Shown here: piece by piece, positions 16,471-58,581 of the stretch
Position numbering within the stretch: position 1 is the stretch's first letter
Layout: the number at the start of each line of letters is the position of its first letter
Source: Pseudovirgaria hyperparasitica
Taxonomy: Eukaryota
Reading direction: 5' to 3' (one strand)
DNA length: 64,000 nucleotides
Assembly: GCA_010093815.1 (NCBI GenBank)
Contig: ML996595.1
Notes under the pieces: generated by a model
The model's database searches: none
Told to the model about the DNA's origin: nothing
The model's input: only the letters and a program-made list of their open reading frames with translations
Made by a program: the position numbers and the translations under genes

Positions 16471-16567
16471 GTCAACACATTGCAGTCAACATATGGCGGT
16501 CAACATATTGTGGTGAGCATATTGTGGTGAGCATATTGTGGTGAAGATATCGCGGTCAACACACATA
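16471..16567 (+). repeat. 14-bp minisatellite (consensus GTCAACATATTGTG/GTGAGCATATTGTG), 6 full copies plus 1 partial, abutting an ATG
   Basis: Units start at 16471, 16485, 16499, 16513, 16527, 16541 and 16555; ATG at 16568. Confidence 0.85.
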
Positions 16568-38864: not shown

Positions 38865-41488
38865 TTAAGGGCGTGGAAAGCTTGAATGAAAGCTGCCGAT
38901 TTTTTGAAAGCCTCTGTCGATGTCATCAATATGCTGTACGATCTTGTCGTTATCCTATTGGTTGCGACTCACTTGGCAAGATCGATACCCTCTTCCTCCT
39001 CATCGTCCATTCTGTCTCTGGCGAGACTGGCCCTTTTGCCGTAAGACACTCCCGATCCGCGTGTAGTATTCGCTGCAATCGTAGATGACGGACGCGCGAT
39101 AACGCCACCGAACCCAGCATTGAAAGATGAGCCCTGAGGAATCTTGTCTCCTGCTATACCACTGTTGGACACAGAGCTAAGGGTGCGCTCACGTCCTGAC
39201 TTAGTCTGTCGTCGGCTCATCGGCCGGCTCATGCTACGGGTAGGGCTAACAGGCTCGGGCACCTCTTCGTCTGCGTCTTTGTCCAACTCTGGCTGAGGTA
39301 AAGGTGGGCTGCTTGGTTGCGGCGGTATATCTGGTGTACTTTCATCATCGCTTGTGTGTTTTCTCTTCCGCGAAGGACTCAATTCTGTACGCACAGGAGT
39401 ACTCCCAAGATCTGCATATCTCCAGAATGGGGCGGGCGAGCTTAATTGCATGAACTGTGATGGAGCCTGCGCCGTCGACGGAGGCGCAAGGCGTGGAGCA
39501 TGACGAGCTACAAGTGGTGTGACGAGATGGTTCGCGCGACTGGTCTCGGTTCCATACAGAGGAGGAGAGTTTGAGCCACTGACCCTCAGACCCGGGGCGG
39601 TGTCGGGTGCGCTGGGGTTCCGGTCAAGTCTACTTGTCGTGTCAACGTTCGCGCTGCTGCTCGCGGCATAAGACGGATGTGTACCATGTTGAGCCCGGCT
39701 GTTGATGGGAGTTCGAGATTGTTCCCCGTTGTTCGACGGTGGCATGATGTCCGAGCCCTTCGCGAGACGAGGACCTCGCTCTGGGGTATACGCCTCAGTA
39801 GCCTGGGGTATCTGATTGAATGGGGGAGTGTGAGAACGCTGCGGAGACTTCATCTTAGAATCTGAGGTTGGAGGTCGGCCATTGTCTCTCTGCATGTACC
39901 CAAGGAACCGCTCACCTGGATGCGAAGAAGGGGCCATGCCCGCCGCGGGAGAATTCGGACCTGAAGAACCCATGCGTGCAGTTCCGCGGCGACCATTCAT
40001 CAATGTCTTACGAATGAATTCATCACGCTGGTCGTCGACAATCTTCCACTTCATCCCCTTGCCGGGCTCATCGGTACGACGTGCTACTTTCTCGAAGGCT
40101 TTTGACAGCGAGAGATTGTGGCGAATCGAATTTTGCCACCCACTACCACTGTAACGATAGAATGCATATTTGTCACGGATGTACTGGTAGATATGCGCTA
40201 GGGTCAACATCTCATCCGGACTGCTCATTATGGCCTGACCGATAAGTTGGGCGTAACTCTGAGGAGGTTTGAGTTCTTTGGCAGAATCTGCGCTATAATC
40301 GATATCCTCCGTGCTCTCCATCATGACTCCGCGTGCATATCCCGGAGACTGGGGTGCTCGCTCTTTTACGCGCGATGCTAGAGGTGTAGCAGGCTGAGGA
40401 GCTCCAGCGAAGGCAGCTGCAGCGAAAGTATTACCCGGTAAACTGGCCCTTGGTTTCACAGCGCTTTGTGGGTAGGGCTTGAAGCCTGTGGAAGAGGGAG
40501 GAAACGGATCAAGATCGGTGAACTGGCGGTCATCAATAAAGCCTCTACCATTGCGCCGCCTGGAGCGCGTCTCCTCATCCGTTGATGTTTCGGCTGGATC
40601 TGCGAGCGCCTGCTGCTTGATGTATGGATGAATTACAGGCTCCACGTTGGGCAGAATGAACAGCATCTGTGTACCAACGATCGCGATGACGGAGCCAGAA
40701 TGCAAGGTGACATTGTGATCTTTGTGGACTGTCGCATCATCAACTCTCAGCGCATTACGACCTCTTGTTGTGAGGATCCATTTTTCTGTATCGCTATTGT
40801 ATTCGATCGAGGCGTGGAGTCGCGACACCTCACGACTTGGACCCAAGTCGATAGCTATGTGGAAATTACTACCCGTGTTTGCAGACGATATTGTACCGGG
40901 AATGCTTGCAGGAGTGAGACCATCTTGCGGGTGATTTGGGCGTTCGGCACGGCCAATATGCACATAAGGTTGTTGGACAAAAAGGGTCCAATCACGACCA
41001 GCAATCTTGGCAAATGCCGGCCTTTCGTTTGCATCCCGCGCATGTAAGTCGTTTGAAAGCTCAATTGAAGCAGTTATTGGGTTTCGCGCAACTTTCAAGT
41101 TCGCTATTATTTCGTCGATCGAAGGTTCGCTTTCGGCATCGTCATCTTTTGTCTCGACTGAATCAGGACTGCTCGCCTTTACAGGCACAACTTGATCAAG
41201 TGAAGGTACAGTCTCAGGCACAGATCCGGGGGCTGGGGACTGGGCAGCATTTTCAGTTCCGTTCAGCTATAGAATATCGTCAACATAGCTTCGATGTTTG
41301 CCATGACAAGGGCAAAGTCATGTCAATAAACACAGTTTGGTCCATGTCTGTCGTACAGAGGGGAGTCTTATTAAGCAAACACTTACTCGTCTTCTTTTCC
41401 TTGTTGGAGTCGACATAATCTCAGTCGCATCGATATCCTCTGCCTCGACTTCCTTCTTTGTCCGTTCACTTCGTCGTCGCGGAGCCAT
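38865..41488 (-). CDS. FKH2: FHA + forkhead transcription factor (Fkh1/Fkh2 family), 814 aa, 3 exons (41488-41387, 41266-38973, 38913-38865)
   Basis: FHA: AFAKIAGRDWT...IGR...IDLGPSREVSRLHA...GRN. Forkhead: KPPQSYAQLIGQAI...GWQNSIRHNLSL...GKGMKW. Spliced C-terminus IDLAK/GFQKIGSFH. Introns 41386-41267 and 38972-38914. Confidence 0.9.
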
Positions 41489-42315
41489 TCTGGAGGTGGA
41501 TTTGCTGTCGACAGGGTCAAGGGTGACTGGAGGGAAAGCGTAAATATTTATAGAATTCGTGCGAAGATGGCTGGGTAATGCAGGTAGGGCTTATTTGCAG
41601 TGTTTGTGTGTGTTTGCTAGTATGGAGCCACGACCTTCCAGACGGGAGGATGCTCTGACACTGAATTCCGCAGGTGGTGTTTGTGAGGAAGTGTGCAGGT
41701 TTTGCCGGCGGAAATGTTATGTTTGTGATGGCTGCGCTCGCCGCTAGCTAGACCGTACCAGTCGCAGGTGAAACTGTCTTTGGCTTAATTTGCAGAGCGC
41801 AGCGTCATCTCAGTATGAATGCAAAGCAGATGACAGCTGGCAGATTGTCGCCGTCGGTGTGGTCGGTGTGGTCGGCGGGAGAAAGTGGTGGTTGCGGCTT
41901 CGACGGACAAGGAACCTGAAGAGAGTCGTGTTGTTTTTGCGTCGGACGCGCGCACTCGATCGGAGACAAGCGCAGTGCAGGCGTGCTCCGTGTCCTTGCA
42001 ACCCAGACTTCAGAAGCCTCGAGTATATGCCAGCGTGTCTGTATTGAGTATATAGTAAAGGATTGAAGCTCAGATAATGTCTTCAAGCAGCAGAAACAAC
42101 GACAAGGGCGAGCGTTGACTGCTGTTGGCTGGATTGATTACAAGGTGATGCCGATCTGTTGCAGCACGTCACGTGGGGCAAACACGCACACGCTTTCGGC
42201 AAACTACTAGTGCCGTGTTTCGTGCGTCACCCAAATAATTAATTACAGTGACAATTGTCAAACAGAGCGAGCACCACAGCGTCGATCCAGGAACATGGAC
42301 TAAATCATCTTTCCA

Positions 42316-42317
<2 letters not shown>

Positions 42318-42377
<60 letters not shown>
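42318..42377 (+). repeat. (CT)~30 microsatellite
   Basis: Perfect dinucleotide run upstream of the forkhead gene. Confidence 0.95.
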
Positions 42378-42385
<8 letters not shown>

Positions 42386-42871
42386 CTATCCTGACTCAAT
42401 CGTCCGGTTTCTTGCATACAAATAAGCCCAAGACAAGCGTAGGAATGAATTGAAACGAGCCCCTTCGCGGCCGTTACTAAATAAATTCTTGGCCCCTACC
42501 CTCGTACGAGAGCTGCGATGGCGGCCTAAGTTCGGCGCCTTCAATATGACGTACGTAGAGATCATTCTGGCCACGTGACCCTGCCCAGACTGCCTGGTCT
42601 CGAGCGCCACGACCGTTTTGAGCTTCCCGACCTGTAGCTTGGGAGGGTGTTACCCCGGAATGGTACATTATCTGGTCGGATTCACACTGCAGGGCTTTAC
42701 AGTAACGACGGACATTGAAAATAACTTTGGTTCTCAGGTATACAACTAGACTGCAGAATTTCTACAGTTTCGACATAACGCTTTTATCACATTACTACCT
42801 GAATCGCTATATAACCCAAGGCTCAAACATCATTTCAATCCAGGACTTGCATCTCATACCGTTGCATAGCT

Positions 42872-45800
42872 TCAAATGTCAAGCGGGGCACTGAGAGGAA
42901 GATTCCTCGAGGTTGGACCAACGTACACGGTCTTTGGATGTTCTGAGATGTACCAATTTTGGGTTGTGGTGTCCCAGTTACTCAGATCGCGACGAGTTAC
43001 GTCTGCAACAAAAGTAGCCGACATACCCTTATTGATGCTTAGACGAGCGAAGGTACGCAGGACAACTTTGGGGTTGTCCTCACCACCCAAGCTGAGGTAA
43101 AGCTGAGGGATTTCCTCTCCATCTCTGTCACCGGTATTTGTAACGGTACAGGTGACGGTGAACATGACATCGTAAAGCAGTGGATTACCACCTGGGCCAC
43201 CCCCAGCAGCAATGCGTGGCTGAGGGGACGAGTCACGAGCACCCGGCGGGAGGAAGTCTTCGCTACCATAGTCAGAGGAGTTGGAGGCAGTGGCCAGGTC
43301 GGTGGAGTTAAGATAAGGATAAATATACGAAGTGACGTAGGTGAGATTAGCAGGCCACTGGTAGTCATTTACGTCGGTGCTGTAGTTTCCTAGAACCGGA
43401 GCAGATCCTGTCTGACCCGTGGTTGGCGTGTATTCGCCAACGGAGTGCTTTTGGACTTGTATATCAGAGTAATTGTACGTTGTATAGGATAGTCCATATC
43501 CAAACTCGTACACAGGCTTGATTCCAGCACGGTCGAAGGCTCGGTAATCAATGAAGACACCTTCCTCAAAGTTGTCTTGTGGTGCATTCTCGCCGTTGTT
43601 TGGCTCATAAAGGAGATCGGAGCCATAGTCGGCACGGTCGCGGCCTAACGTGAAAGGTAATTTGCCGGCTGGGTTAACACGACCGTACAGGACGTCGGCA
43701 ATAGAGTTACCCGACTGTTCACCCGGAAGACCAGCCCAAAGAATTGCAGTCACGTTAGGGTTCTCGTTCCATGAACCGATAGTGACGGGACCGGTGGAGT
43801 GAATGACGACGATAGTGTTATTGCATACAGCCGTGACATTCTGGATTAGAGTCTCACCGTTGTTCCAAAGGGTAAGGTTGTTACGGTCGCCGATATTTCC
43901 ATCGACGTTGATGAAACCCTCACCAGAGTCAGAATTCACGAAGACGATGGCAGTATCGACCTGTCTCCCAAGAGCCGCAATGTAGTTGTAAGCATAGTTA
44001 TCCGTCACAGACTGCACAACTCTGCCATTCTGGACCAACTCGTTCTGAATGGCGGTGAGTGGCGACACCAAAAATGGAAAGCTAGAAGTCCCCGATCCCC
44101 AACCCATCGCAACGGTGCCGTTGGAACAGCCGTGATCAGGACATCCATTAGGGCCATATTTGCTGTCTTCAGCATCTTCGCCGAAGATACCGGTGAATTT
44201 CTCCATACCTGACAAAGGCAGGGTGCTGCCAACGTTTTTCAAAAGAACAGTGGATCGGGCGGCAGCGGTGCGGATAGATCTTGTATGCTCGCCACGAACG
44301 TCTACGTGCTGGTTAATCAGACCATAGTTCTGCCTGGCGTAGGCATTCTGATAGCCAAATGTGTCGGTGCTCCAGCTGTTGAAGTTGACTGGGACTCGAG
44401 CGGTGTCACGGCCTACGAGGTAGAATGCAGCCATGATGCGCGTGACCATGTCATCGAGACGCCATTCAGGCAGAGTCCCGTTGAGAACAGCAACCGTCAT
44501 GTTCGGGCCCCAATAAGAAGTGTACGTGTTGAAGAGAACATCACCAGGCATGGCCATGTCCATTCCTGCAAGCGCAGTGCTCACCCCAGCGTGCTGAGCT
44601 TGCCAATCGCTCATGACGAATCCTTGAAAGCCGAGTTCGCCCTTGAGGAGGTAATTGAGGGTGTATGAGTTTGCGCAACCGTACGAGTTGTTGATTTGCT
44701 GGTAAGAGCACATGATGGCGCCGGTGCCTGCTCTGACAGCATCCGCAAACGGCCACAGGTATAGCTCGTGCATCGCTTTGTCGGCAACATTCGAGCTCAG
44801 CGTCTCGGTAATGTTGAAACCATAGCCGACGGATTCACCAACCTGACGGAAATGCTCTTGTTCATTCATAATGTAATGCTTCGTAGTCGCAACTACGCCA
44901 GCAGCCTGAATTCCTTTGATCGTCTCGGCAACAGCAATCCCAGACAGGACAGGATCAGGGCTGTAGCCTTCCCAATTACGGCCACCAGCTGGTGAACGAC
45001 CAAGCGGGCCAACGACAGGGCCCAGCTGAACGTCAACGCCTTTCCCTCTGAACTCCATGCCCATCTGATAGCCACGCTCATACCACAAACCGCGGTCCCA
45101 AGCAGCGGCAACGGTCCCACCGGCGGGAAATGCAGAGACGAAGTCGGCTACAAAGTGTCAGCGCACACTCTTGGAATCAAGAACAGAGCAAGGCGCGCAT
45201 GGTCCGCTCCACATACCGAACCGAATGCCTAATGGAGAATCCTGCATACACAGGCCCTCGAAACCAAGTCTGGGAACAGAGCCAACATTACCAACGCATG
45301 GTCCTCCTTCCCAACTGTACTCTTGTCAGCAGCCGACGCGGTTCTGGCTTCTCATGCGCGCATACCCAACACCAGTGGTCAAATTGACCTTCTCCAACAG
45401 GGTCAATTGACGAACAAATGCCTGAGCTTTTACGTAGGCCTGATCCCAGCCGCCGGAGCCATCCATCCATGGTGAAGGGTACTTTGGAGGCGAATATGCG
45501 TTATTGAGGCCTTCGTTACCTGGCACGGTAGCGTTTGGATATGTGGTATTTGGAAACTAGCAGGAATTAGCCCATGAGCACAGCAAACCTCGTTGACGAA
45601 CAGCTGGTGATTCTGCACGATGTAGTATTGCGATGGGGAGATGTAGAAATGAAAACAAAGCATTCAAGGTTATCAGGAAGCTTTGAGAAAGCTCCATTCT
45701 GGGTGGAGTGTGTAGCGGCGACGCAAGGGAAACTGGCTATCTATTCTTGGTGGTTGCGCGCAGAGGGGTATGGTGGAACAGATTGACGCAGCTTGTTTCA

Positions 45801-46689: not shown

Positions 46690-47130
46690 GTAGTATTAGC
46701 GTACTGTATTGATTAGTTAGAGTATGGCCTCCCTTAGATAAACTAATTATATAGTCTTATCTAAGCTATACTAACTATTTAATATTATTAACTTATACTA
46801 TCTTTATTAGATCTAGAGTTAAGACTCTAGAAAGTATTTTAGCTATATTTAAATATACTTCTAAATAGGCTCTTACTCTCTATATAAGGAAATAAAAAAG
46901 AGTAGATAAGTAAATTATTCTAAGAATATTTCTAATAATAGATAATATAGAGAAGAGAAGAAGAAAGAGATTGAAATATATTTTTATTTTTATTTTAATC
47001 TTCTATAAGATCTTTTAGACTTCAAAATTACTTAATAGATATCTTTTAGATATAGATATAGTTATATATAATCTTCTAATATCTTCTAGAGTGAGTCTTA
47101 ATTCCAGAATTTTTAAAGAAAATATAAGTT
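46690..47130. mobile_element. RIP-degraded AT-rich repeat remnant
   Basis: Extreme TpA enrichment and CpA/TpG depletion; homologous to part of 57130-58170. Confidence 0.75.
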
Positions 47131-48356: not shown

Positions 48357-51300
48357 CTATACAGGCTCACTCAGAGAAATCGCCTTCTTAGCCACCAATG
48401 CGCCGACTTCCACCAGCCTAAAGTCACCCACTATATCGTGAATGGCCATATCTACACGCAATTCCCGTGCCAGCCAATTTCTTAGTTCCAGCGCGATCAA
48501 CGAGTCCACGCCAAAAGACCTCATAGTGTCATGGATCGACTTCTCCTCTTCCTTCATCCCAACAATCTTACAAACTTTCGCTTTGATAGATTCCGCCACT
48601 AAAATCTCGGCTTCTTCAATGGACGAGGCTTCACTCAATACAGCTGTCATATCCTGAGCCTGAGCCGCCATGACTGTTTCATTTTCATTTTCATTTACGG
48701 ATCTAATTTGATGGAAAGCGCGGAAAAGGCTTCTGGATAGCTTGGGCGGAAGCTCTCGCCCCTTTCGACGAATGTTTGCTGGGATCTCCAGTCCGCACAC
48801 AATCTGGCTTCTGGCGGCGCTCGTTGGCTGATGGACAGGGTGACAGGAATAGTCGAGGATGGCGAAGACTTCCTCTTGTTTGAGTGCGCGTAAAATATCG
48901 AGTCGTGAAAGTAACTTCTGGATCTCCTTGTTCTCGGCAACGATACCTTCGCCTATGATCATACCGAGGTCAATTGCTATTGCTTTCTCTCCTCTCGACA
49001 CGCGATGTCGCGCTAGCTCATCTTGAAAGGTATTACCGGCTGCGTAATTGCTTTGACTGGCATTACCAATCACCCCGGCCGTGGACGAAAGCATGACGAA
49101 GAAATCTATGCCGGATGGCAGCGTAGCATGAAGATTCCATGACCCCGAAACCTTGGTTCTTACACCTTCATTCCACTCTGCCAGTTGCATGGTGGAAAAT
49201 GGGCGATCCTAGGCGCAAATATCAGCTCGAAAACTCTCTGGCAACAATTGGGGGCCTACACTAAGAATCATTGCCGCTTGAATGCAGCCCCGGATGGGTG
49301 GTAGCGATACAGCAGCTTCGGCAAATATCGTCCTAACAGACTCGAGATCGGTTATGTCACACGGTATGCAGTTTACGTTTACTCCCTTCTCCTCTAGCTC
49401 ATGCACGAGCTGCTTCTTGTCGCTATTGTGACCGATACCAGAACGTGATAATAACAAGAGATGCTTAGCTCCATGTCGGACCAGCCAACGTGCCACTTGC
49501 CGTCCGATCCCGCCCAGGCCTCCGGATATTACATAAGTTGCATCTGTATGTAGGCGATATGGAGTAACAGGACTTGCTCTGACCAAGACCTGCGCGTTCT
49601 CGGGGATATCTAAGACAATTTTGCCAGTGCTCTGTCCGCTTTGCAAAAGACGGAAAGCCTGCTCCGCCTGCTCAACCGGGAATGGATGTACAGGGTATGA
49701 AGGCATCAGTACACCCGAACTAATGAGCTCCATGACTTTTTCTAGAATCTCGCCATCGTGTAGATTTTCGTTCTGCACAATGGCAGTTAGATCGACACAT
49801 GAGAAGGTTGCATTGCGGATAAACGGAAACATTGGCAGAGAACCACGAGAGTCAACGTCTTTTCTGCCAATCTCGACAAAACGTCCAAATGGGGCGATAA
49901 GTTCCCAGGAGGCGACAAGCAGCCTCCCAGAGAGAGAGTTCAGGATGACATCTATACCACGATTTTTTGTAATTCTTCGGATCCCATCGGTAAATGAAAC
50001 GTCACGGCTGGAAAATATGTGGTCTTCATGCAGACCGTAGCGATCGATGAGCACTTTTTTCTTGGCTTCAGTGCTCACAGTGGCGAAAATTTGAGCACCA
50101 ATGTATTTGGCCACTTGGACTGCAGCCTGACCGGTCCCCCCTGCTGCGGCATGAATCAGGACAGTCTCGCCTTTTTGTAGCCGGCCGACCTGTAATATGT
50201 GAGTCCTCGATGAGACGTATCATGCAGAAACAAACCTTGACTAGACTGTGCCAGGCAGTGTAAAATGCCGTTGGAATCGCCGCACCGTCAACGAAAGACA
50301 TTTTATCCGGGAGTTTCACAGCCTGGAAATCAGCGACCCTCACATAGGTCTTATACGTTTCCAGAGCCCCTGTAGCCACGCGATCTCCTACCTGAAATTT
50401 CCGTACCGCACTTCCAATGCGATGTACGTGACCAGAGCACTCGCCGCCGAGCCTATCGGTATTGACACGTCCCAGGAGAACCAAACACTCCTTGAAGTTG
50501 ATGCCGATAGCTTTGACTTTCACTTCTATCTCATTTGGCTTCAGCCCATTGTATGCAACTTCATCTTCGACCCATTCAAGGCTATCAAGAAGTCCTGGGG
50601 TACGAATACTCAATTGGAGTGGCGGACTCGATTCGAAATCTTGCATCTGTACAACTCTACGCAAAGAGTTCCAGACGTACTCATCTACCTTTTTGGCCTG
50701 CGCTAAGCGGCTGACACACAAGCGGCCTGATACTTCGCGATATTCTTCTTCGTACGAACCGTCAATGAGCCCTGCGTGAGTTGCGACCTGTACCTTCTGA
50801 ATAATTTCGACAGCCGAAGCAGGAGCTTCCCACGTATTGGTTTCAAGTAAGAGCGTGACAATGGGGCGGCTTAAATCCTCCGAGCGGCAAGTTCTGACGA
50901 GGCCATCAATCATGGCCCAGTAAGGTGGAGCGTCTTCTCCAGCATCATAGGACTCGGTCCAGATTACACTCTTAGAGCCGGTAAGGACTCTCTGTAATGC
51001 TTCGAAGTCGCCCTGTGCAATGTCCGAGAGCGATTTCTGACCTGGAGAACCAAATATCAAGAAGTCTCTGTGTGCGAGATCCTCCAATTCTAGTATGTCT
51101 TCATAATAGGCAACGGTGGCTACGGACCCACTGGACGATCCGTGATTGGAGGAACTACTCTTGAATTTCTCGGCGATTTGTTCTTCGATCATCGCGCTTT
51201 TGCTTAAGAGTATAGTGGTTGAGTGGAACGGCGGGAGTGCTGTATTGGGTGAGATGAGGGTTTCGGGCGACGAGATCATGATGCTATATAAATGGCACTG

Positions 51301-54300
51301 CGGTGACTCCCAATCTTGGTAGACCTGTTCCAATCCAGAAAATCCATTCTTCTTCAGAAGTAAATCCCATTGGTCCTCGTCGATGATTGCACTGGATTTT
51401 CGTGATCCGTTTGCTCCTAGCCACCAACCTGGCAAAGTGCCGAAGACGAACCCGGTCTCGATCTTATTTGGTGTAGTCATCTCCATAATTATGAGTTTTC
51501 CCCCGGGCTTTAGTAAGCTCTTGACGTTCTGTAACGTCTGGTCCAAATCGCGAGTGGCGTGAAGACCATTGGCAGCGACTACAACATCGTACAGCTCTTC
51601 GAACCCTTGACTCGCCGGATTTTGTTCAATATCGAGTACTTGATACTTCAAACGATCACTGCGTGTCGCGAAACGGTCTTTCGCTTTTTGAAAGAAAAAT
51701 CCTGATATATCGGTAAACGTGTATGACGAGTAGCGTGGTCCATGTTCGCTAGACGCGAGGATGTCCAATATCAGACTGGTGGAGGCTCCAGCTCCAGCTC
51801 CAATCTCAAGAAAGGTCAAGTTCGGGCTCTTATGTACCAGGATGTCTAGGTAGCTGTCTAATAGCTTGTAGGCTCTTCCTTGGTTGTTCAATTCTTCGTA
51901 AAAGGAAGCCACAAAATGGTCATCCTTAAACAAGAGACTCAGAGGATCTAAATCCCCGACTAGTATATCCGTCGTTTTCCTAGAACCTGACCCGTCGTCG
52001 AGTGTTGTTTTGCTCATCAGAGCATCAGGATCAGGAAGGCGGCCTAAATGCGAGTAGTGATCAACGCGGGCTTGTAGCCAAGTAGCGTATCGAGTCAAAG
52101 AAGGATGAATTCGCCGTCTTTCAGACTTTATTGTCTCTAGCGCCTTGGCAGCGAAGCAGGATATCATGAGTCGAATATCATCAAAGAATTTTTCAGGTTC
52201 CTGCTCGAAACCAACATTATGTGAGCAATAGTTATGTATCCCGGTATTGTCGAGCAGAGCTATATCTGGTTTCCAGAATATTCCATAGCATAGTGGTTGG
52301 GGACCCGCCTCAGTTTGCGTGTCTTTTTCATCAGAGGCGACTTGCGTTACCTCGAGCTGGTCAATTTCGACTCTAACTTCATTCGCCGAGCACGAGTATA
52401 CTACCGTGGAGCTCTCCGCGCAGACCTTGCTCAAGAACCTTGCTTGACTGTGTGCTATCTCTTGCGCACATGATTCTTTCCCTGCCCCTTGTCTAGAGAT
52501 CCATATTCGAGAAATCCGTGACGGTACGAGTGTGGGTAACCCGACTGTAAGTCCTCTACTCAAGGCTGGAATGGTAAGCTGAAATATGCCATCAAGCGTG
52601 GCTGGATGAATTACATATGTAGCCGGAGATTCAGTCAGGTCTGCGTGCGGTAGAATGGAAGCTATCGCTCTGCCATCCATATTGTAGTGAATATCCGACA
52701 AAGGTTGGAACACAGGACCATACTGGAGCGCTGTACTCTCGTGAATCTTTTGATACATGTCTTGAGTGTCAATACTTCTACGACAGGCCTTCAAAGCGAT
52801 CTGCAGCTCCTCTTCGGTCCTTTGCCTGGTGTACATCATCTCTTTCATGGTGAATTGCGTGTCGCGATGGGCGAAGTCGGCACGGATAAGTCCGTCGCAA
52901 GCTATCTGCCAGATCGCGTCGGGAAGTCTCGAGTAGATATTGAACTTATATTGAGCGTCCTTGGTCCCGGCTCCTGCGACAGCTACAAGGCTTGTCTGGA
53001 GATCCAAGCTGGCCGAAGATGAATTAAGGACTATTGGAGCGAGAAAACGGATGTCATGTATCTCGAAACCTACAGGACATGGCTTTTGCTTAGACATTAA
53101 CTGATTGATAGCCTCGATTGCTAAAGCGATCATGCCCGCAGCTGGGTACCATATTTGACCATCGATTTGGTGTTCAGCTATCCATGGCATCGTTTCTTCT
53201 TTAATTTGAAGTCTCCATAATGCATTATTCTCATTCCAATCGAGACTTGGCTCACCAAGGAGAGCGTTATGACCAAAAGGTCTAAAGCGATAAGACCGGG
53301 ACCTGCTTGATTCTTGCCAGTGTATCACAGAATGATTGAACGGGTAGGGCGGAAGGTCCAGGGCAAACCTTGGGACTCGTGTTGGAGAAGTGCTCAAGGA
53401 GTTGATTGCTTGTAGGTCAATCTGAATGTCCCGACAGTAAAGCTCACCCGCAGCCTCCAAGAGGGTTTTATCTGCGGCCACATTTCTCGCCAGGAGAGGG
53501 GCGTAAAAGAAGTCTGTCGCGTCGTTACTCTCGAATACCTCGCGGATCGGACCCCGGAGCGCCGAGTGAGGTCCTACCTCCAGCCAGTTGCCTGTGAATA
53601 TCTTTCCAGTAGAATCTGACTTAGGAGCAACCGATGAGCTGCAGTCGAGAGTAGCCGCGAGCCTAACTGCTTGTTCAAACTTGACTGGTGAGATCATGTT
53701 CTTCACCCAATACATAGGTGTGCAAACATCTTGCGGCTTTATTGGATGCGCGGTGACGGAGGAAACCATCATAGTCAAGCCAAAATTGGTGTCGGGAGTC
53801 AGATTTATCAGATGCGAAGCATATTCGTGAGATATCTTTTCCATTTGTGGCGAATGGTAGGCTAGATCTACGTTCAACCTCCGTGTAAATCTGCCGTTTT
53901 TCGAAAAGTGGCTAAGTAGTTGATCCAGCTGCACACTGGGACCCGATAGTGTGACATTGTTGGGGCTATTGATGCAACTGATTGTAATTTTGGATGTGTC
54001 AAAGAAGTCTATCGAAGTCTCACTGAACTTCGTTAATTCTTCAGTAACCGCGTTGCTTGAAATTTGAACAGCGATCATGCCTTGTTTCTCAGATGAGCTA
54101 CACGAGACCCTGTCGGCCAGAACTCCTCTGAAGTAGGCGACCCTGACCGCAGACTCATGAGAAAGGTATCCGGCACAGTAAGCAGCAGCAATCTCTCCTG
54201 AAGAATGGCCGACGACAACCTGCGGCTGAATGTGACAAACTCGGGTCACTTCAATCAGCGCTATCTGGACAATCGTAGTCAAAGTCTGGCTGAACTCAGG

Positions 54301-56327
54301 CTTGTTGATACGGCTTTGCGCGGGAGAAGCAGAGAGCTCTTCCATGATGTTCCATCGACAGCCAAGATCTTCAAGGAAGCTCTGAGAACGGGCCAGGCTT
54401 TCTATCACTTTCGGCCATGTCAAAATCTCGAGCGCCATATTTGGGTACTGTGCACCCTGACCGGTGAATACGAAGCCTAACCGAGGAGTTGAAATATTTA
54501 TAGAGCGCCGGGAGGTGAGTGATCTACTACCGAGCTCAATCAAATCTTGGCTAGATTCAATTATGGAGTATGCACGCCATGATTGTGGGAGCTGCCGTAA
54601 GTTAAGAGTGTACAGAACATCCTCCAGGGCTTCAGCGTTGAGATGGGTTCGGCGATGCGAAAGGTATGCAGATATCGACTGGGTGATTCGTGCGACTCCT
54701 TCTTCGTCTGATGAACATATAGCTAGAATTCTAGAGGTGCAGCTAGGAGCCACGTTCACGGGTACCAAATCGCCACTATTTGCAACTTTGTCTCTATGGC
54801 CGTCAACCGACGCGATACCATTTGACTTCACCATGCAACTGAGGCGGAGAGTCTTGGATCCATAGTTATACCCAGCGGCTTGGAGATAGTCCATGGCAGA
54901 GTCTAGAACAACGTGTACATTTGTTCCACCTGGAATAGATTAGCGCGGTAAATAATAGTTTCCACTTGGCTCACCAAATCCAAACGAATTCACCGAGGCC
55001 CTTCGAGTCTCATCCTTGGGCCAAGGTATACTTTGCGTGGGAAAATGGAGCTTCAATCCAACCGCATCGATTCGCGGATTAAGCTCATCGAAGTTAGCAT
55101 TTGGGGGTATGATGCCCTCTTCTAAGCAAATGACAGTCTTGACAATTGCTGCAAGCCCGCTTGCACCTTCCAGATGGCCAATCATTGACTTCAGCGCGCC
55201 GACGTACATTGGCGACGAGGCGGAGCGGTATTCTTGGAACGCTTCACCAATTGCTGAGGCTTCAATCGGATCTCCAATGAACGTGCCAGTACCGTGACTT
55301 TCGAAAAAGCGGGTGTATGCCATGTCTAATTCAGCCTTCTTGTATGTTTCTCTAATAAGTTGCAACTGCATGTCTTTGCTTGGCTGGGTAAGACCTCCGG
55401 GGGTGAAGCCGTCTTGATTCATGCCGATCGACCTGATGACTGCGCGAACCGGGTTGCCGTCCCTGATTGCTTTGGAAACTGGCTTGAGAAGTAGTGAAGC
55501 GAAACCTTCACCGCGCCCGTACCCATCGCCTTTTGCATCAAAGCTTCGAGAAGTCCCACTTGGAGAGAGGAAGTTGAGATTACTCAAAGAAATCCCAAAT
55601 TCAGGTCCAAGAATGATGTTGGCGGCTGCAACGATGGCCATATCCGAGCCAGAGTAGATGGCCTGGCAACCTAGAGCCGTGGCAACCAGACTACTTGAAC
55701 AAGCGGTGTCCACGAAGATGCTTTCCCCTTTTAGATTGAAGAAATAACTAATCCTGTTTGCTAGGATAGAGCTAGCAGTACCAATTGCGTTGTATTTGGG
55801 CATGCTCTGTGTGTCACGTGACTGCATTTGAGCGAAGTCGTGGGCGAATGAGCCCACATGGACTGACGTTTTTGTCCCACTGACGTCTTTCAGAGAAAGC
55901 CCAGCATTCTCTATAGCATGGTAAGTGGCCTCCATCAATGCTCGCTGTTGTGGGTCCATGGCGATGACCTCGTGAGGGGCCATAGCGAAGAAGCCAGCAT
56001 CAAAGTTGCGGATGTCTGAGCCTAGAAAGTGTGCTTTCCTTGCGGCAATCTTCAAGGGTCACTTTAGCTGAAAATATCATTTAGGAGAGCTTTGAGGCTT
56101 ACGGTATTCCGTTTCCCTGAAGGATGCCAGAAACTGTCTATATTGAGACGGTCCTCGGGGTATTCTGTGGCCAGGTTCTCTCCGACCAGTAGAGCCTTTA
56201 GAAAAGCATCGGAGGACTCTATGTCTTTTGGAAACTTGAAACTCATGCCGATAATGGCAATTGGCTCTGTCTCTGCGGCCATGTGGTGGTCAGACTGCTG
56301 ATTGTGGTATCCCGGAACACTCGGCAT
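48357..56327 (-). CDS. Highly reducing iterative type I polyketide synthase KS-AT-DH-CMeT-ER-KR-ACP, 2591 aa, 5 exons (56327-56103, 56049-54975, 54929-50236, 50189-49260, 49208-48357)
   Basis: KS: EPIAIIG, DTACSSS, HGTGT, GHLEGASG. AT: GHSSGE, AYHS. DH: HQIDGQIWYP, HPATLDGIFQ. CMeT: LEIGAGAG, LHAT. ER: LIHAAAGGTG. KR: GGLGGIG, YAAGN. ACP: GVDSL. Exon lengths sum to 7776 nt with no internal stop. Confidence 0.95.
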
Positions 56328-56620
56328 CTTCTTCAATACGGGGTATAGTATGCCCTGTTCTGATGGTATGTAGTCCAGTGGAGGTTCTTGCTAGATTATC
56401 GACACTTGTATACGGCACACCTAGCAGAAATTTGTGCGATGAGCGATTAGACAAGCTTCGGTTTTCAAGAAGTGGGTAACTTTATGCTTAAGGCGAGCGT
56501 CTGCATCTTCGATGCAACTCTATTTAAAAGCCGTAAGTTAATAGCCATTTTTAAAGTGGCGTGTCATTCGATATAGCGACCACAACAATGTTAGGAGGGA
56601 TGAGCTGCATACATGGATGG

Positions 56621-56968
56621 ATCCGTCGTTTTGCTAGAACCTAAGTCGCTAGCACTAATAGTGCACGCGTGTTCTCTCCCCCATCTCTCTATCCATCTAG
56701 AGCTCTGTTCTACTTTAACGTCTATTCTCCTTCTTCCTCTTCTCTAAGAAACTAGACCCTCTTATTATAGAATAGAATAGAGAGTATAGAGCTTAATAAC
56801 ATGTAGACTTAATCTCCTTAGTCTACTCTATGAGTCTATGTAGGTATGTTAGTATATAGACCCTTATATAGAGGTAGAGAGGTAAAATAACTATCCAATA
56901 GGGGTGTGTAAATATACGCGTGTAATTGAAAAATGCTAAGCGACTTAGGCTCTAGAAAAACGACGGAT
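56621..56968. mobile_element. 348-bp non-autonomous DNA transposon (MITE-like) with ~35-bp terminal inverted repeats
   Basis: Left end ATCCGTCGTTTTGCTAGAACCTAAGTCGCTAGCA; right end reverse complement ATCCGTCGTTTTTCTAGAGCCTAAGTCGCTTAGCA; shared CACGCGT further in. Interior is TpA-rich (RIP). No clear TSD. Confidence 0.8.
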
Positions 56969-57129
56969 GTCTTAAGCGCTCGCTCGAGTACTCTTGGCAG
57001 CGCCGATAGTAGGTACCGACCCTGTTTACTACCGGTTAGCCAGCCTCTCTATTTCTACCTAGAGCCCTATTCCATGTACATTACTATTACTTATCTAGAC
57101 TCCGGCATGCATATACAGTCGGATATAAC

Positions 57130-58170
57130 CCGAGGGCCTAGATTAGAATTATATAGTTAGTTAATCTAAAAGTTTAGCTTAAGATTAGAATCTATACTAT
57201 AGAATTACTAGAAATACTTATATTAGAATAAATTAAGTATATAATAATTATCTAATTAAAAAGTAGAAGGGAGATAGAAAGACTAAGAGATAGATTATAA
57301 GTATATTATATCTATATCTTAGAATATTATATATATTTACTAATATATAACTTTAAGTAACTAGAGATATAGAAATTTTAGTAGATTTAATAAAATAAAA
57401 TTAATTAATATATCTAGCTAATAGTAGTCTATCTATTATCTATATATAAGATTAAAACTAACTAAGATTTAGATAATAGAGCTTAATAATAGAAATACTA
57501 TAGAGATATATAGATACTTTAAGTTCTAGTACTAGTAGTATATTAAGTCTCTTTATAGAAATAGATATAGTAGATAAGAAATAAATAGATATAGTAAGAT
57601 CTAGATAGTAATAAAGATTCTTTAGACCTCTTAGTATATATTATATAATATATATATATTTTATCTAAAATTATCTTTTATATAAAATTACGTTTTCTTT
57701 AATAGCTTTAAAATTAAGATTTTAGAAAGTTTCTAATTATATTTAAATATACTACTTTTATATAGACTCTTATCTTATATATATATAATAATAATAAAGT
57801 AAATAAATAAGTTATTTTAAAAATTCTTTAAATAATAGTTATTTTAAGAAGAGATAAGAAAAAGAAACTTAAATATAGTTTTTTATTAGAATAACTTACT
57901 TATTTATTCTTTTTTTCTTACTTTCTTATATTCTATTTCTATCTATTACTATATTAAGTTATAGAATAGAAATAGAATAGATATTAGTAGAGTCTAGAGA
58001 AAGGTACTATATAATTAGTAATCTATAAGATTTCTATAGATCTAATATAGAGATAGCTAATTAATATCTAGAAGACTAGCTTATATAAAACTAATATAAT
58101 TATTATAGCCGTCTTCGAATTATTATTATTAACGTTAACTATATTTAACTAGTATAGTATAAATGGTCTT
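57130..58170. mobile_element. RIP-degraded AT-rich transposon remnant in the PKS/MFS divergent intergenic region
   Basis: ~1 kb almost devoid of CpA/TpG, TpA-rich, no ORF; contains a segment homologous to 46819-46980. Confidence 0.8.
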
Positions 58171-58581
58171 AAGCTACACGTCTTTAAGTAAACAAGGTAC
58201 ACGTCTCAGAGTAAATAACCTCCCTTGCATCGGTTAAAACATATCCGCCCTCTCCGGAACCATGTATTTGAACTTACACAAGTAATCTAACCAATTAGAT
58301 TTAGACTATACCATCTTCGCAATCTTTCTTAAGGCGTAGATTAAGCTTGTACTCTGTATTACGTTATTTAATAAGATTGAGCGTGCATGGATTCGGATTG
58401 TATGCGCCGTCTGCTCTAAGCATAAAACCCTATCCCGACGGAGCAATTACGGCCCGGCTCATCTGCCTCAGCAGTGGACGGCTACATAGCACCTACAACG
58501 CACGTGTGCGAGCCCTGAGGTAGGCAAAGCAGTTTTTCAGATGAGACTATCCGAGTCCAACTCTTTCATCTTCTGCATACC

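Follow-up and report, generated by a model that had tools for sequence, protein, structure and literature searches.

The 64,000-nt stretch of Pseudovirgaria hyperparasitica DNA analysed here (contig ML996595.1 of assembly GCA_010093815.1; hereafter the window) contains a gene for a highly reducing polyketide synthase (PKS), listed with the other features of the locus in Table 1. The searched protein region was identical to P0002, annotated at source as a reducing type I PKS from Pseudovirgaria hyperparasitica, and the highly reducing assignment follows from the presence of KS, AT, DH, cMT, ER, KR and ACP in one open frame. All seven domains were intact and of normal divergence. This agrees with an earlier reading made from the sequence alone (the sequence-only reading), which had described the megasynthase frame as kept intact despite a scar. 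Introns lie near window positions 56050-56102, 54927-54971 and 50188-50233 and, as judged by sequence only, near 49209-49260. The nearest PKS homologue was 51% identical, no close paralogue was found in the genome, and neither an unscarred allele nor a close orthologue of the gene was found. We saw no RIP trace, and hence no leakage of RIP into the PKS, across 48.4-56.4 kb (TpA/ApT 0.5-0.97).

Table 1. Coordinates of the PKS, the transposon-derived features around it and the full-length elements (window positions unless a locus is named).
Feature	Position	Strand	Remarks
Highly reducing PKS gene	48360..56332	-	KS-AT-DH-cMT-ER-KR-ACP, 2591 aa as P0002
C-methyltransferase (cMT) region	51217..52380	-	Scar in N-terminal helical subdomain
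AT target dinucleotide (TSD)	51967..51968		Empty versus filled site L098/L055; completes host-like Asp codon before Ile-Leu
Transposon-end stub	51969..51993	+	23 nt exact plus 2 nt as in rarer subfamily
7-nt direct repeat of element terminus (CCGTCGT)	51992..51998	+	Spans deletion junction; from sequence
Internally deleted MITE, 348 bp	56621..56968		Same family as stub; AT on both sides, ~30-bp TIRs
RIP-damaged relic, second AT-flanked MITE family	46790..47130		Downstream of PKS
RIP-damaged relic, second AT-flanked MITE family	57640..57890		Upstream of PKS; inside third repeat (~57109-58410)
Full-length elements, 3.4-3.5 kb	L031:986-4497, L054:785-4177, L055:767-4174		G000 C7, C8, C35

Within the cMT region, bases 51967-51988 matched 56621-56642, the end of the MITE upstream of the gene, at 21 of 22 positions. 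The sequence-only reading had pointed to this match; comparison within the window reproduced it, and against the wider family it proved longer still. Among 71 distinct family ends compiled from fetched loci, the PKS site included, 11 of the 70 others were identical to 51967-51991 over all 25 nt (manual count), and in a rarer subfamily (L067, L094) the match reached 27 nt. A genome-wide search with an 18-nt pattern from the stub returned 47 matches at one mismatch or fewer in 35.4 Mb, and the reversed control pattern returned none. Two details of the earlier description had to be changed. The match does not start exactly at the terminus of the terminal inverted repeat (TIR), as its first two bases, AT, are the duplicated target dinucleotide (TSD) and the element begins at CC; and the TIR, given there as 35 bp, measures ~30 bp for the MITE and ~115 bp for the full-length copies L031, L054 and L055. 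The assignment of the stub to the element at 56621 held for the family but not for that copy. Past base 22 the stub reads as the CCTGAC subfamilies do, whereas the adjoining MITE reads CCTRAGTC, and because the stub there belongs to another subfamily, this MITE was excluded as its direct source. The exact consensus match of the stub suggests a recent event.

Read on its coding (minus) strand, the stub encodes GSGSRKTT (residues 1413-1420 of P0002) and supplies the G of the Asp codon that follows. The surrounding translation, SKTTLDD-GSGSRKTT-DILVGDLDPL, is in frame, as previously described, with host-derived L-D-D before the stub and D-I-L-V-G-D-L-D-P-L after it. The 7-nt repeat across the junction possibly reflects templated repair, or else a chance combination of host GAC GAC with two stub bases. 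Searched as the end or start of another repeat family, the junction sequence returned only its own site and three scattered two-mismatch matches, with one match for the control; the 7-nt repeat thus does not open a further repeat family.

The stub was compared with contigs of four public runs (X1-X4, from two samples) over window positions 50000-57050. X1 and X2 may be the runs from which the assembly was made; in them, a single DNA contig of 14,401 nt covered 50000-56758 with zero differences, the stub included. This ruled out assembly collapse; there was no collapsed full-length insertion of the kind that the sequence-only reading had raised as a concern. Contigs of X3 and X4 skip three GT-AG introns of the PKS, and the stub was also unchanged in two of these intron-skipping contigs, one of 7007 nt from X3 and one of 3415 nt from X4. 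These two runs are not recorded as RNA, and we infer their RNA nature from the intron skipping. Because the stub remains in contigs from which the true introns are missing, it is present in spliced RNA, and its removal by splicing was ruled out. The PKS transcript contig of X3 was full length and correctly spliced. It stopped at window position 56618, leaving 3 bases to the MITE upstream. A contig end cannot show where a transcript starts, so at most this hints at contact between the MITE and the PKS promoter. No variants were found within the PKS gene in contigs of X1-X4, so these runs probably hold no second allele.

The MITE upstream of the PKS is short and non-coding, has TIRs and a TSD, and belongs to a set of many similar-sized copies. 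Other copies measure about 500-520 bp, and this one lacks ~160 internal bases. The second AT-flanked family has ends beginning ATCCGTC(C/T)GTAAC (38 matches, control 0). Its copies nest within each other (L002:887-1502; L071-L101), and at C46:12252 (L002, also L016) one AT serves both this family and the first. The AT-rich tracts flanking the PKS are MITE relics in the same orientation, which disposed of a capture of the gene between inverted repeats. No tailoring enzyme was recognised near the PKS among 12 long ORFs scanned. The nearest recognised downstream neighbours were a GH3 glycosidase and a forkhead/FHA factor (window 38969-45157); a possible transporter-like start lies near 58570, and a short tandem array with a 14-nt unit occupies 16471-16554.

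Full-length members of the stub's family carry a DDE_3 transposase (Pfam E 1.7e-19) whose protein homologues are of the DDE_3/IS630 type. The transposase is damaged by RIP-type stops, with a single stop in the near-intact copy L054, where the triad is formed by FIDE, MDN and an E 34 residues on (D...D34E). No match was obtained when a transposase heavily damaged by RIP served as query, and a second convergent frame of ~630 codons in the full-length copies had no Pfam match. Over both families, AT opened 109 of 114 distinct ends, with TA preceding 8 of the 114. At an empty paralogous site (L098) a single AT was present, and at the filled site (L055) AT stood on each side. This indicates that the TSD is AT and not the TA duplicated by IS630/Tc1/mariner elements; CT replaced it once, on both sides of L054. 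The parent is a DD34E Tc1/IS630-like element that duplicates AT and not a canonical TA member. An element from a metagenome (L102:26-3917) has 112-bp TIRs, a transposase 41% identical and CT on both sides.

Several observations bear on how this family leaves its sites. Eleven of 114 distinct flanks ended in ATGG or ATCC, compared to a background of 0.8% (binomial 3e-9), in a test that was chosen post hoc and to which target preference could contribute. We read these flanks as AT-GG-AT and AT-CC-AT excision footprints with re-insertion, which would mean that the family excises. The left flank of the MITE upstream of the PKS (window 56613-56622) is a tandem ATGG-ATGG just before the element end, as at L099 and L101, as if excision and re-insertion had been repeated at one site. 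Short stubs with only one element end, about 17-33 nt long, are found elsewhere in the genome (L048, L093, L046, L035), so such stubs are normal products of the family. Only the PKS stub, out of 115 ends examined, lay well inside a long ORF. Another end, of family B (L098), is 12 codons away from the border of a frame of 440 codons. One copy of the family, at L032/L033 (G000 C11:790185-801874), is interrupted by 8.2 kb of inserted DNA, probably an LTR retroelement, with 245-bp direct repeats at its two ends.

We examined what the host had lost at the scar, which lies 10 residues before the residue aligning with LovB F1400. According to the sequence-only reading, the helical stretch that normally precedes the DPL motif was missing here, and an alignment with 119 homologues bore this out. 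The spacing from a conserved Trp to DPL is 44 residues, compared to 50-67 in 118 of the 119 (median 62) and 33 in one, so the region is shorter than in all homologues but one. The motif G-x-x-L-x-x-I-L-x-G, found in 98 of 119 homologues and with its G and L more than 90% conserved, is absent, and the stub peptide is rich in Gly, Ser and Lys at a place that is hydrophobic in the homologues. In P0071 (labelled Clohesyomyces aquaticus) the spacing is shorter still, with ~17 residues of the same helix missing through either a real deletion or an error in the gene model. As no unscarred allele or close orthologue was found, the lost segment is not directly visible and its length is only bracketed. 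With the eight stub-derived residues discounted, homologue spacing would put the loss at 14-31 codons, and the nearest short-loop homologues at about 20. The loss claimed by the earlier reading thus stood, and its figure of ~20 codons became one value within this bracket.

In the LovB cMT the active site lies between the two subdomains and F1400 marks the substrate entrance, according to an excerpt of PMC7870829. The cMT was modelled with AlphaFold, as had been proposed together with the sequence-only reading. In the homologue P0003 this region formed helices at 125-138 and 140-150 (pLDDT 96-98), whereas the scarred cMT showed a short helix, a segment where pLDDT fell to 68, and a single helix spanning the stub (pLDDT 89). 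The CMeT fold was retained: the scarred model matched PsoF with Z 34.3 and rmsd 2.7 (327 aligned), and the homologue model with Z 37.7 and rmsd 2.5 (335 aligned). The fold of the scarred model is driven by the alignment and neither shows nor excludes activity. The His and Glu motifs are kept, as is most of the SAM-binding loop. Two substitutions occurred in none of the homologues: T1480A, within the SAM loop (GAGAG for GAGTG), and V1555G, beside the catalytic His (NGLH for xVLH). Divergence of the cMT core was ordinary, 17 of 32 full-length homologues deviating as much or more; this lack of excess decay would fit either a recent event or a domain that still works. There was no sign of selection, and a literature search on this PKS gene or on the cMT lid returned nothing. 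The sequence-only reading had suggested that methylation programming could have been altered or inactivated; we lean slightly towards C-methylation being reduced or lost.

The scar could instead be tolerated, the stub peptide replacing the lost helix so that the cMT still methylates and the product is unchanged. We think this possible but the less likely outcome. It would accord with the largely kept SAM loop, His and Glu motifs, with the lack of excess decay, with a model that keeps the CMeT fold and places a helix over the stub, and with the natural variation of this segment among homologues. The helix that was lost, however, is one that most homologues have and whose G and L hardly vary; the Gly/Ser/Lys-rich stub is a poor likeness of the hydrophobic sequence found there in homologues, and the two unique substitutions affect the SAM loop and a position next to the catalytic His.

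We are more doubtful that the scar destabilises the megasynthase and that the gene has recently become a pseudogene while still being transcribed, its frame kept by a one-in-three chance with nothing selected. The apparent recency of the event would suit such a pseudogene, as would the MITE relics on both sides of the PKS, the failure to recognise a tailoring enzyme among the scanned ORFs and the position of the PKS stub as the only examined end inside a long ORF. The seven intact domains of normal divergence and the full-length, correctly spliced transcript contig argue against it. Moreover, highly reducing PKSs with inactive cMT domains remain functional.

For the origin of the scar, we propose that the AT-duplicating DD34E Tc1/IS630-like element entered the cMT exon by inserting at an AT that formed part of an Asp-type codon. 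The host sequence before insertion would have been x-AT-ATA-CTA (Asp-type codon, Ile, Leu), as in several homologues, and a TSD of AT fits these D-I-L codons. The element would then have been lost, most likely by excision with faulty repair. One broken end would have retained some 23-25 nt of the TIR or been extended by that length into it, and some 45-90 nt of exon would have been lost from the other before the ends were joined, in frame by chance. Transcription and splicing would yield a PKS of full length in which the cMT is missing the greater part of two helices beside the substrate entrance, with KS, AT, DH, ER, KR and ACP expected to be unaffected. We consider this history very probable as a whole. 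Excision with aberrant repair is the most likely origin, the order of events, the repair route and the expression of the protein being reconstructed. Short in-frame footprints are known to restore fungal genes after excision of Fot1 or impala. A simple Tc1/mariner footprint would consist of the TSD and 2-3 terminal bases without host loss; here, 23-25 TIR bases were kept and host codons were lost, whereas the family's own footprint appears to be AT-GG/CC-AT. The sequence-only reading had likewise proposed insertion followed by imprecise excision or deletion. Its transposon origin, codon loss and kept frame stand; the excision route we infer as the simplest.

It is improbable, in our view, that the scar arose in two steps, an intact element first causing a deletion of adjacent exon, or two nearby copies recombining, and the element later being trimmed to 25 nt. 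Elements of the two families do pile up at the same AT (C46:12252), and recombination between adjacent AT-TSD MITEs that deletes host DNA is described for Epichloe in part of PMC3227409. Such a course would nonetheless require two events and a null intermediate, the junction carries no remnant of a second TIR, and the PKS is free of RIP trace. We give almost no credence to an assembly artefact or a chance match: the assembly is in 122 pieces with contigs broken at repeats, but de Bruijn contigs built independently from two samples run through the site unchanged, a collapse would not delete host codons, and the control pattern had no match against 47. Insertion at AT followed by excision with faulty repair remains our preferred history.

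The closest known case is the NRPS gene perA/ppzA-2 of Epichloe, in which, according to excerpts of PMC3227409, a 50-bp remnant of EFT-3m, an AT-TSD MITE, lies at the point of a 1,223-bp 3' deletion. There, as here, a short AT-TSD MITE remnant marks a deletion junction in a megasynthase gene of secondary metabolism. The Epichloe gene, as far as these excerpts go, is truncated and has lost its 3' end and the whole R domain, whereas the scar in the PKS is internal and in frame, with eight residues encoded by transposon bases and with ER, KR and ACP still present. Also, perA/ppzA-2 alleles are expressed and make other products, as given in part of PMC6926027. In a literature search for a PKS with an in-frame TIR footprint, no such case was found. 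Compared to the cMTs of LovB (7cpx), PsoF (6kji), CalH (7dmb), CurJ (5thy) and PksCT (5mpt), the scarred domain shares the two-subdomain fold, the SAM loop and the His/Glu motifs, but differs from the fungal HR-PKS CMeTs among them in that part of its N-terminal helical subdomain is a transposon-derived peptide.

The parent family shares DDE_3, D34E, TIRs, a 2-bp duplication, MITEs and short footprints with IS630/Tc1/mariner DD34E elements and their MITEs, as described in portions of PMC7325037 and PMC2836289. It differs from them in duplicating AT (CT in L054 and L102) and not TA, the target that these portions give for ITm elements, in its ~115-bp TIRs and in its second convergent ORF. A literature search found no AT-duplicating Tc1/mariner or IS630 element, although one may be catalogued in Repbase or subscription papers, which lay outside that search. 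The Epichloe MITEs EFT-3m/Toru, EFT-27m and EFT-28m are listed as being of unknown superfamily and without a parent element (PMC3227409). Like the family here, they are fungal, have an AT TSD and lie near secondary-metabolite genes; their TIRs are 29-40 bp. Compared by description, they differ in their termini, CTCC or CCC as against CCGT/TCGT here, and in that the present family has a DD34E parent.

We conclude that the PKS carries a real transposon scar in an expressed and otherwise intact highly reducing PKS, in one strain. More tentatively, this may be a transposon end exonised in an iterative PKS, with one domain switched off or retuned so that a differently methylated polyketide is made, the element belonging to an undescribed AT-duplicating DD34E lineage, possibly of the parent type that fungal AT-TSD MITEs have lacked. 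If the product were unchanged or absent, the scar would be a neat yet ordinary mutation of one strain. If the product is changed, it would represent a route from a methylating to a non-methylating highly reducing PKS, caught in the act and taken by an in-frame scar rather than by slow point decay. It would also provide a naturally occurring deletion with which to probe the lid helices of the cMT, and would parallel ppzA-2, which was at first taken for a pseudogene. The AT-duplicating DD34E element itself offers a superfamily for unclassified fungal AT-TSD MITEs, and a transposase with a different target.
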